Below, one piece after another: positions 30,352-31,317 of a stretch of DNA of 43,313 nt; the first letter of the stretch is position 1; each line of letters opens with the position of its first letter. The stretch lies in UHGV virus genome UHGV-0213395. The stretch is one strand, 5' to 3'. The stretch comes from a virus. The notes beneath the pieces are model-generated. The model saw only the letters and a list, made by a program, of their open reading frames with translations. It ran no database searches and was not told the DNA's origin. The position numbers and the translations under genes are program-made.

Positions 30352-30526
30352 CCGCAAACCAGCACGTGACATCGTACCAGGCGACATGATTTTCAACGTT
30401 AAGACCCGTCGTCCTGTTGCCGTTGATACGGTGTTCGTCGAGTCGAACGGTAAACTGGTTATCGAAGATGTAACGGGTAACGTTACGGCGTTCGGGCGTA
30501 AAGAGCTGGTGCTGGTGGCAAAATGA
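30335..30526 (+). CDS. hypothetical protein (63 aa)
   Basis: Intact ORF overlapping neighbours. Confidence 0.45.
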   Translation: MKHEYDRKPARDIVPGDMIFNVKTRRPVAVDTVFVESNGKLVIEDVTGNVTAFGRKELVLVAK

Positions 30527-31317
30527 ACTATTACAACGAATGGGATAAAGGCGCAGCCGCGTGGCTGCGTGAATTAATAAAACAGGGTCACATACCTTTT
30601 GGAGTTGTAGATGAAAGAAGCATTACCGAAGTTAGACCAGAAGACCTTGACGGGTTCACCCAGTGTCATTTTTTCGCGGGTATCGGCGGCTGGCCTCTCG
30701 CGCTCAGACTTGCGGGAGTTTCTGAAGATACGCCTATATGGACGGGAAGTCCGCCTTGCCAACCGTTTAGCACGGCAGGAAAGCAACTCGGACAGTTCGA
30801 CCAGAGACACCTCGCACCTGTGCTCCTCGACCTCATCAGCGAGTGCCACCCTCCAGTCATCTTTGGGGAGCAGGTTGCGGCAGCAATTGCAAAATCGTGG
30901 ATGTGCGATTTACAAACTCACCTGGAAAGAGAAGACTACGCCGTCGGGTTTGCCGTACTCCCAGCTTGTAGCGTCGGCGCACCGCACAAAAGGAATCGAT
31001 TGTTCTTCGGAGCGCAGCAACTGGCCAACACCGTGTGCGAACAACTCGGCGGGAGCAGGCCATCAGGGCAGGAACGGGGGCCACAATCTGCAAACAGAGG
31101 CATCTCTGACACAGCCAATCCGCCTAACGGGTTCTGGTCAGATGCTGACTGGCTCGGATGCCGGGATGGAAAATTCAGGCCAGTTGAACCCAGCACATTC
31201 CCGCTGGCTAATGGGGTACCCGCCAGAGTGGGACGATTGCGCGGTTACGGCAATGCTATCGTCCCGCAAGTAGCCGCTGAATTTATAAAGGCGTTCATGG
31301 GGGCCGTAAATGAGTAA
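30523..31317 (+). CDS. DNA cytosine-5 methyltransferase, apparently frameshifted (motifs split between two frames)
   Basis: Frame 1: motif I FAGIGGW, motif [10 protein letters not shown], motif [13 protein letters not shown]. The +1 frame (ORF 30611..31273) carries WPTP and [18 protein letters not shown] (motif IX-like). Confidence 0.55.

Follow-up and report, generated by a model that had tools for sequence, protein, structure and literature searches.

Nested genes in two reading frames, conserved across phages, probably encode the two chains of a C5 cytosine methyltransferase

Here we describe a pair of overlapping genes in the virus genome UHGV-0213395, a DNA of 43,313 nucleotides (nt) whose whole length is referred to below as the window. 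The window genome is that of an E. coli phage, a Kagunavirus (Guernseyvirinae), and the region in question is ~99% identical to Escherichia phages 590B and Bas73. Two open reading frames (ORFs) share the plus strand: one of 264 amino acids (aa) at 30523-31317, here called alpha, and one of 220 aa in the +1 frame at 30611-31273, here called beta, which is wholly nested in alpha and covers ~84% of its length. The locus is a conserved nested gene pair, and reflects neither damage, nor error, nor frameshifting; we regard it as two nested genes because the layout recurs, the +1 frame is kept open, it has an ATG of its own, and selection alternates between the frames. Both frames are very likely to be functional coding frames. 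With a probability of roughly 0.7, their products form an alpha/beta C5 cytosine methyltransferase (methylase) of the M.EcoHK31I type, a reading based on sequence and on likeness in layout to the published description of that enzyme. A preliminary description of this DNA had placed the two ORFs at exactly these coordinates, with the conserved methylase motifs divided between them, and both points were verified; its three proposed explanations (an inactivating indel, an error in the deposited sequence, or a +1 ribosomal frameshift) fared less well, as set out below.

The two-frame layout extends far beyond the window. A tblastn search with the C-terminal 121 aa of beta matched 247 phage records, including epsilon15, BcepC6B, Vequintavirinae, and phages of Rhodobacter, Xanthomonas, Klebsiella, Vibrio, Pseudomonas, and Erythrobacter, and an exhaustive search with the same segment returned 8070 cluster representatives (50% identity) at E<=1e-3. 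In 10/10 phage loci that were fetched (L004-L013), the DNA that matches beta is read in the +1 frame of the long methylase ORF; a single coding sequence, a short fragment, is annotated in the beta frame among them (L010). When the annotated methylases of Klebsiella, Xanthomonas, and Burkholderia phages are aligned with frame 1 of the window, they are colinear with it from end to end, and their C-terminus is strongly conserved (DWLxCRDGKxRPVEPGTxPLxxGxPxRVGRLRxYGNA). The preliminary description had held that its case would fall if homologs were colinear with frame 1 while the +1 matches were not significant; the first half of this was found, but the second was not, as the +1 matches are highly significant.

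To quantify the openness of the frames, a set of 83 loci was used, comprising 70 analysable of 80 fetched viral contigs, 12 phage records, and the window; 77 distinct loci (and their alpha genes) entered the stop counts and the codon alignment. Across the 83 loci, the median stop-free share of alpha is 90% in the +1 frame, versus 20% in the +2 frame. As a null model, synonymous codons were permuted with each alpha protein and its codon usage retained: these shuffles predict 3.5 stops in the +1 frame and leave only 4% of sequences stop-free, yet zero stops were found in 75/77 loci. For alpha of the window, the shuffles predict 4.9 stops in the +1 frame and none is observed, 0/100 shuffles are stop-free, and the +2 frame holds 8 stops, in line with the earlier judgement that the overlapping ORF is not a product of chance. 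That the +1 ORF merely arises from the amino-acid and codon composition of alpha and is not translated is therefore scarcely credible; the one feature in its favour is that the beta sequence is unselected across alpha aa 3-104, whereas several further segments carry a codon-position signature of the beta frame and the cassettes described below are conserved at the beta amino-acid level. Even the N-terminal ~80 codons, in which beta shows no amino-acid selection, are held open in the +1 frame in 76/77 loci, with 1.39 stops expected, a pattern intelligible only if translation of the frame begins upstream of them. Conversely, none of 70 loci has an alpha-frame stop across the beta cassettes, where 1.66 would be expected; this implies that motif X must stay joined to the catalytic core of alpha.

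Selection along the gene was read from nucleotide diversity by codon position in the 77 distinct genes: where alpha position 3 is the most variable, frame 1 is under selection, and where alpha position 1 (equivalent to position 3 of beta) varies most, selection acts on the +1 frame. The ratio of diversity at position 3 to that at position 1 is 2.31 over alpha aa 3-104 (motifs I-V; alpha dominant), 1.41 over aa 105-122 (motif VI and a beta helix; both frames constrained), 0.74 over aa 129-143 (a beta hairpin; beta dominant), 1.76 over aa 146-163 (motif VIII; alpha dominant), 0.72 over aa 197-208 (the beta segment QPIRLTGSG...; beta dominant), 1.81 over aa 209-220 (a conserved alpha segment; alpha dominant), 0.88 over aa 221-238 (the motif-IX-like segment of beta, where all three positions are low, at 0.26/0.16/0.23, and beta or both frames are constrained), and 1.94 from aa 239 to 262 (motif X to the end; alpha dominant). 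Within one widespread type of cassette (TTRDHKDG..., 23 distinct DNA copies), diversity at beta positions 1/2/3 is 0.37/0.33/0.52, that is, a beta signature. Purifying selection thus swaps frames about seven times along the gene, and a single polypeptide containing all of the selected segments would consequently need about six frame switches.

This alternation bears directly on programmed +1 frameshifting, which would yield a trans-frame protein (alpha motifs I-VIII followed by the beta cassette and motif IX), alone or beside the separate products. The order of the elements in the DNA (VIII, WPTP, IX, X) suits a product read in frame 1, frame 2, and possibly frame 1 again, and 4/149 representatives of the beta family (P0123, P0143, P0169, and P0246) are hybrids that pass from the alpha frame into the beta frame. 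P0246 does so right after motif VIII and is the kind of protein that the preliminary description had envisaged. The switch points differ in all four, however, as for sporadic indels, and we read these hybrids as sporadic indel variants or assembly errors. The preliminary description had confined the switch to 31003-31021, a placement contradicted by the onset of beta-frame selection upstream of motif VIII, at ~30883-30951; the beta-selected segments are, moreover, separated by alpha-selected ones. Around that junction (30982-31030), synonymous sites of alpha vary freely (diversity 0.55-0.59), and hence there is no conserved slippery site. A trans-frame product would lack motif X unless it were shifted back, a chimera scores no better than alpha alone on PF00145, and the +1 frame is open for the ~80 unselected codons upstream and has its own ATG. 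In genes with programmed frameshifts known from phages, such as the tail assembly chaperone G/GT and dnaX, the slippery site is conserved and the frame is switched at one point only; the present locus resembles them in that two frames feed protein products, but it lacks a conserved slip site, its selection alternates, and its second frame has its own start. Taken together, we consider frameshifting very improbable.

An indel, whether in a decayed gene or in the deposited sequence, that broke a single-frame methylase can be dismissed with near certainty. Automated annotation does see the layout in such terms: in the Ec1117 prophage of E. coli (L094, 2908-4077), PGAP labels the alpha homolog as two partial pseudogenes, one "missing C-terminus" and the other "missing N-terminus", and marks the adjacent MT-A70 methylase as "frameshifted". 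Against this explanation, the layout is intact in 75/77 loci from many host genera, with both frames under purifying selection, full-length homologs of frame 1 occur in distant phages, and the phage collection yielded no single-frame relative. A sequencing error is likewise contradicted by identical proteins on many contigs (the exact alpha protein on 6 and the exact beta protein on 29 in the protein collection) and by the same layout in the 99%-identical relatives.

The probable start of beta is the sequence GGAG-TTGTAG-ATG at 30601-30613 (+), in which GGAG stands 6 nt before the ATG and the TAG within the spacer is the last +1-frame stop. Among the 83 loci, the first ATG of the +1 frame lies 55-121 nt downstream of a conserved YYNE motif in 75 (70-121 nt in 74), and it is often preceded by a purine-rich run similar to GGAG or AAGGAG. 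A conserved V-D-E of alpha (window region 30598-30613) is coded there in many loci as GTA GAT GAx, which in the +1 frame reads TAG ATG, that is, the last beta stop directly followed by the start; the Asp codon is GAT in 53 loci and GAC in 26. The sole locus with three +1 stops in the N-terminal part is L023 (a viral contig, alpha at 1513-2550), in which the beta ATG stands 268 nt past YYNE, some 190 nt beyond its usual place, and the helix, hairpin, cassettes, and motif IX are all kept; as judged from its sequence, this late start is consistent with a dispensable N-terminus of beta.

Alpha (30523-31317, +) is read as the catalytic subunit of a C5 cytosine methyltransferase, with motifs I, IV, VI, VIII, and X. 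It matches Pfam PF00145 with 59.1 bits (cut-off 22), over aa 72-163 only and ending at motif VIII, and phrog_363 from end to end (E=2.4e-82, aa 1-263); its score against TIGR00675 (39.9 bits) is under the cut-off of 100.65 for that family. Motif I (FAGIGGW, 30673-30693, AdoMet binding), motif IV (SPPCQPFS, 30748-30771, with the catalytic cysteine), a GEQV variant of motif VI (FGEQV, 30862-30876), and a PHKRNR variant of motif VIII (PHKRNRLFF, 30982-31008) all lie on the plus strand. Motifs I and IV align to M.HhaI and are invariant in distant alpha homologs; motif VI aligns to the ENV region of HhaI and motif VIII to its QKRER region, with G, E, Q, and V of the former and P, H, R, and R of the latter invariant in distant phage homologs. 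In motifs I and VIII, codon position 3 is the most variable, so frame 1 is selected, and the assignment of motif IV likewise draws on codon-position diversity. Further downstream, alpha-frame selection marks a conserved segment at 31147-31182 (+), whose W, C, R, and D are invariant in distant phages, and motif X with its helix at 31234-31287 (+; motif core 31243-31272). The preliminary description had suspected motif X near the end of alpha, and profile comparison bears this out: the alpha C-terminal profile aligns to motif X of the E. coli Dcm-family profile at AYRQFGNSVVVPVFAAVA (hhalign, E=0.0076). Alpha thus resembles M.HhaI and Dcm (PF00145) in motifs I, IV, VI, and VIII, which align to M.HhaI and PF00145, and in motif X, which aligns to Dcm, and differs from them in that no single frame holds the full motif set. 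Between motif VIII and the segment at 31147-31182, alpha is a low-complexity linker without alpha-frame selection, and because of this we recognise no target-recognition domain in it.

Beta (30611-31273, +) matches phrog_1008 (E=1.7e-52) and phrog_31772, both of which are named "DNA methyltransferase" in PHROGs; no Pfam or NCBIfam family was found for it. Its first ~80 residues show no selection at the amino-acid level and are merely the out-of-frame reading of the catalytic motifs of alpha. The selected part begins with a helix (30845-30901, +) that overlaps alpha motif VI, with both frames constrained, and a hairpin (30908-30949, +) in which beta-frame selection dominates and AlphaFold2 places strands at aa 101-109 and 115-123. 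The beta reading ASAHRT (30971-30988, +) is probably just out-of-frame motif VIII. A W-P-T-P cassette, a candidate target-recognition module, follows at 31022-31111 (+), its start falling 14 nt past the end of alpha motif VIII and its alpha reading being the low-complexity linker. The next segment (QPIRLTGSG..., 31112-31180, +) is very strongly conserved in the 50%-identity cluster representatives, and a motif-IX-like segment (31184-31237, +), constrained at all three codon positions, matches Dcm weakly. Motifs IX and X do not both occur in one polypeptide with motifs I-VIII: X is in alpha, and IX is matched in the +1 frame alone. The earlier assignment of motif IX to that frame thus holds as the better candidate, since motif IX is the sole match between the beta C-terminal profile and the Dcm-family profile. 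Two further types of beta C-terminus were seen, one in phage Bas71 (L011, 883-1563), which ends in ...ESYQADFARQLMGYPQEWDDC with a different cassette and by eye is nearer to the classical motif IX consensus than the window type, and another in Salmonella phage SalP219 (L012), which reads LNPQFPCWLMGFPLQWDDC.

The W-P-T-P cassettes are the most variable part of the pair. Beta proteins of near-identical phages differ by entire cassettes, with lengths of 220-342 aa, and among 269 beta-family proteins, the number of W-x-[ST]-[PSTV] motifs per protein ranges from 0 to 8 and is most often two; the window beta, with one cassette, is the minimal form. Its cassette type ([ST][TA]G[AP]GxxGRxGGxN[LI]Q) is shared by 29 of these proteins, with two distinct DNA copies among the fetched loci. 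When the window is compared with K1G, K1ind1, or L019, positions 30523-31032 and 31123-31317 are 93-100% identical and ~31033-31122 cannot be aligned, indicating that the cassette was replaced with sharp borders. Cassettes are conserved at the beta amino-acid level between distant loci. In Bacillus phages (SPR, phi3T, rho11s, and H2), multispecific C5 methyltransferases contain tandem target-recognition modules between motifs VIII and IX; the number of modules varies, and their gain, loss, or exchange alters the set of targets. In the beta family, too, the stretch from motif VIII to motif IX holds exchangeable modules in variable number. The Bacillus enzymes, to which we liken the locus, differ in being one polypeptide in one frame, whereas the cassettes here are in a nested second gene. 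The cassette starts WPTPTANDYKGSG and WPTPTTRDHKDG resemble the sequence with which the variable region of monomeric enzymes begins, for example TRTLSARYYKDGAE in Dcm, a resemblance that is not significant by BLASTP. The cassettes look like target-recognition modules, and beta would set the target or targets of the enzyme if the analogy with the Bacillus phage enzymes holds.

The closest known system is M.EcoHK31I of E. coli (YGGCCR), described by Lee, Kam, and Shaw (1995, as told in PMC2836561 and PMC3404938). There, the beta gene is read in another frame within alpha; motif IX belongs to beta and the remaining motifs (I-VIII and X) to alpha, and neither chain is dispensable for activity (PMC2836561; PMC3404938). 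The likeness in layout to the present pair is close: beta is entirely within alpha in a different frame, the pattern of motifs and of codon-position selection fits a similar division, albeit with a weak match to motif IX in beta, and the dispensable first 41 residues of beta in M.EcoHK31I have a parallel in the first ~80 unselected residues here. The phage gene is, however, solitary: none of its immediate neighbours encodes a restriction enzyme. When a restriction-linked copy was sought in E. coli genomes, 1 of 57 matches was inspected and proved to be a prophage copy with no restriction gene nearby. M.AquI (CYCGRG) also consists of two polypeptides split within the variable region, but its split is sequential, with motifs I-VIII in alpha and the rest of the variable region and motifs IX-X in beta, which places motif X on the small subunit, and it is not described as nested. 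These two enzymes are exceptions among otherwise monomeric C5 methylases (PMC3404938).

By analogy, the pair may be envisaged as follows. Beta would be translated on its own from the ATG at 30611, probably behind GGAG. Alpha would supply the catalytic motifs I-VIII and X, bridged by the linker free of alpha-frame selection, and the selected part of beta would run from the helix and hairpin through a single W-P-T-P cassette to a C-terminal block that closes with the motif-IX-like segment. The two chains would assemble into one enzyme, like those of M.EcoHK31I, with beta providing small-domain elements that have no counterpart in alpha, namely the target-recognition module and motif IX. Such an enzyme could methylate the phage DNA and thereby protect it from host restriction.

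Several observations weigh against this proposal. The target-recognition domain of M.EcoHK31I is assigned to alpha, in contrast to the beta-selected cassettes here. The motif IX match of beta, at TPRECARLMGFE, is weak (hhalign, E=0.2), Pfam detects motifs IX and X in neither frame nor in a frame1-frame2-frame1 chimera, and PDB sequence searches with the beta C-terminal profile and with a motif IX/motif X chimera gave no match. A faint R..P.......G.P pattern survives where alpha reads through the motif IX DNA, and alpha might thus be self-sufficient. Structure prediction lends no help, as neither single-chain AlphaFold model is usable: that of alpha has a mean pLDDT of 38.8 (95 sequences), probably because the alignment rows are all >=80% identical, and that of beta has a mean pLDDT of 48.8 (101 sequences), with its C-terminal half below 50. 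Only ~aa 81-120 of beta (pLDDT ~75-82), covering the helix and hairpin, exceed 70; this profile of confidence is compatible with folding on a partner, and equally with a shallow alignment. The alpha C-terminus also had no match in a PDB sequence search, and the C-terminus of neither frame was significant by BLASTP against E. coli Dcm. A single-sequence search of PDB with the beta C-terminus returned a designed repeat protein (E=0.0079), a weak match judged to be spurious.

These points leave room for a different role of beta, in which both ORFs are expressed, alpha is self-sufficient, and beta is an independent DNA-binding or regulatory protein. Alpha does retain conserved C-terminal segments of its own, beta lacks a Pfam or NCBIfam family and matches motif IX only weakly, and beta occurs fused to unrelated enzymes. 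In P0121 (497 aa), its in-frame partner is a Dam N6-adenine methylase domain (PF05869, E=4e-53), and in P0122 (758 aa), a DUF2800 PD-(D/E)XK nuclease, although both may be either real fusions or gene-calling read-through. Both P0171 (547 aa) and P0194 (457 aa) harbour an insert at the LQSSLxxRL helix of beta, namely an endonuclease VII/HNH-like domain (phrog_1035, phrog_3322), and the helix motif reappears downstream of the insert; from its sequence, the insert could be a mobile endonuclease or intron ORF at alpha motif VI. The in-frame fusions to Dam and endonuclease VII/HNH-type domains also count in favour of the two-chain proposal, being consistent with a DNA-directed module. An independent beta is nevertheless unlikely in our view: from motif VIII to the segment at 31147-31182, alpha has no alpha-selected stretch able to serve as a target-recognition domain, nesting is near-universal in the family, and in M.EcoHK31I the same layout encodes a heterodimer.

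Under the two-chain methylase reading, a broader and rather doubtful generalisation can be offered, which we hold only tentatively: that the alpha (phrog_363) and beta (phrog_1008) families form obligate alpha/beta enzymes with beta as a modular specificity subunit, that cassette swaps let phages alter their methylation targets or add to them, with the alpha frame staying open through each cassette, that two-polypeptide C5 methylases are common in phages, and that beta is portable and has been recruited by Dam and HNH domains. The nested alpha/beta methylase is itself a known kind; what appears to be new is that it is the apparent rule in a very large phage family and that the cassettes are in the nested gene. 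A literature search returned no paper that treats this phage family as two-subunit enzymes. If beta is indeed the specificity subunit, cassette exchange within a nested gene would be a compact means of retuning protection against host restriction. On the broader generalisation, two-polypeptide C5 methylases, so far rare exceptions (M.AquI and M.EcoHK31I), would become a common phage design. The family also offers a large natural data set on two proteins evolving within one stretch of DNA. Kagunavirus and Jerseyvirus phages are therapy candidates, and the sites they methylate bear on host range; natural heterodimeric methylases already serve as scaffolds for targeted methylation (PMC2836561).

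What is probably a whole subunit is routinely overlooked by annotation pipelines or misread as a frameshift. PGAP is without a model for beta, and pipelines usually annotate alpha alone, as is the case in the records of most relatives. Beta is already annotated in K1G, K1ind, and fTaEco03 as a "putative Mte8-like protein", and the label "methyltransferase" also occurs among relatives. The name "Mte8-like" may refer to an entry of Swiss-Prot, for which a search gave no match.

In the window, alpha is tightly packed among its neighbours. Its ATG overlaps the stop of a small upstream ORF of 63 aa (ATGA, 30523-30526), its stop overlaps the ATG of an SNF2-type helicase gene at 31310 (31310-31317), and a VRR-NUC nuclease gene lies further upstream; the overlapping starts and stops at both ends of alpha suggest translational coupling along a replication gene block. 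At the downstream end, a different arrangement is seen in a Klebsiella phage KpV2811-like locus (L015, 1577-2935) and in L014 and L016, where the beta-frame ORF extends 430-442 nt beyond the alpha stop; by eye, this extension is of the endonuclease VII/HNH type (CxxC ... HVDHCH ... CRGCN), making beta a putative nuclease fusion in these loci.

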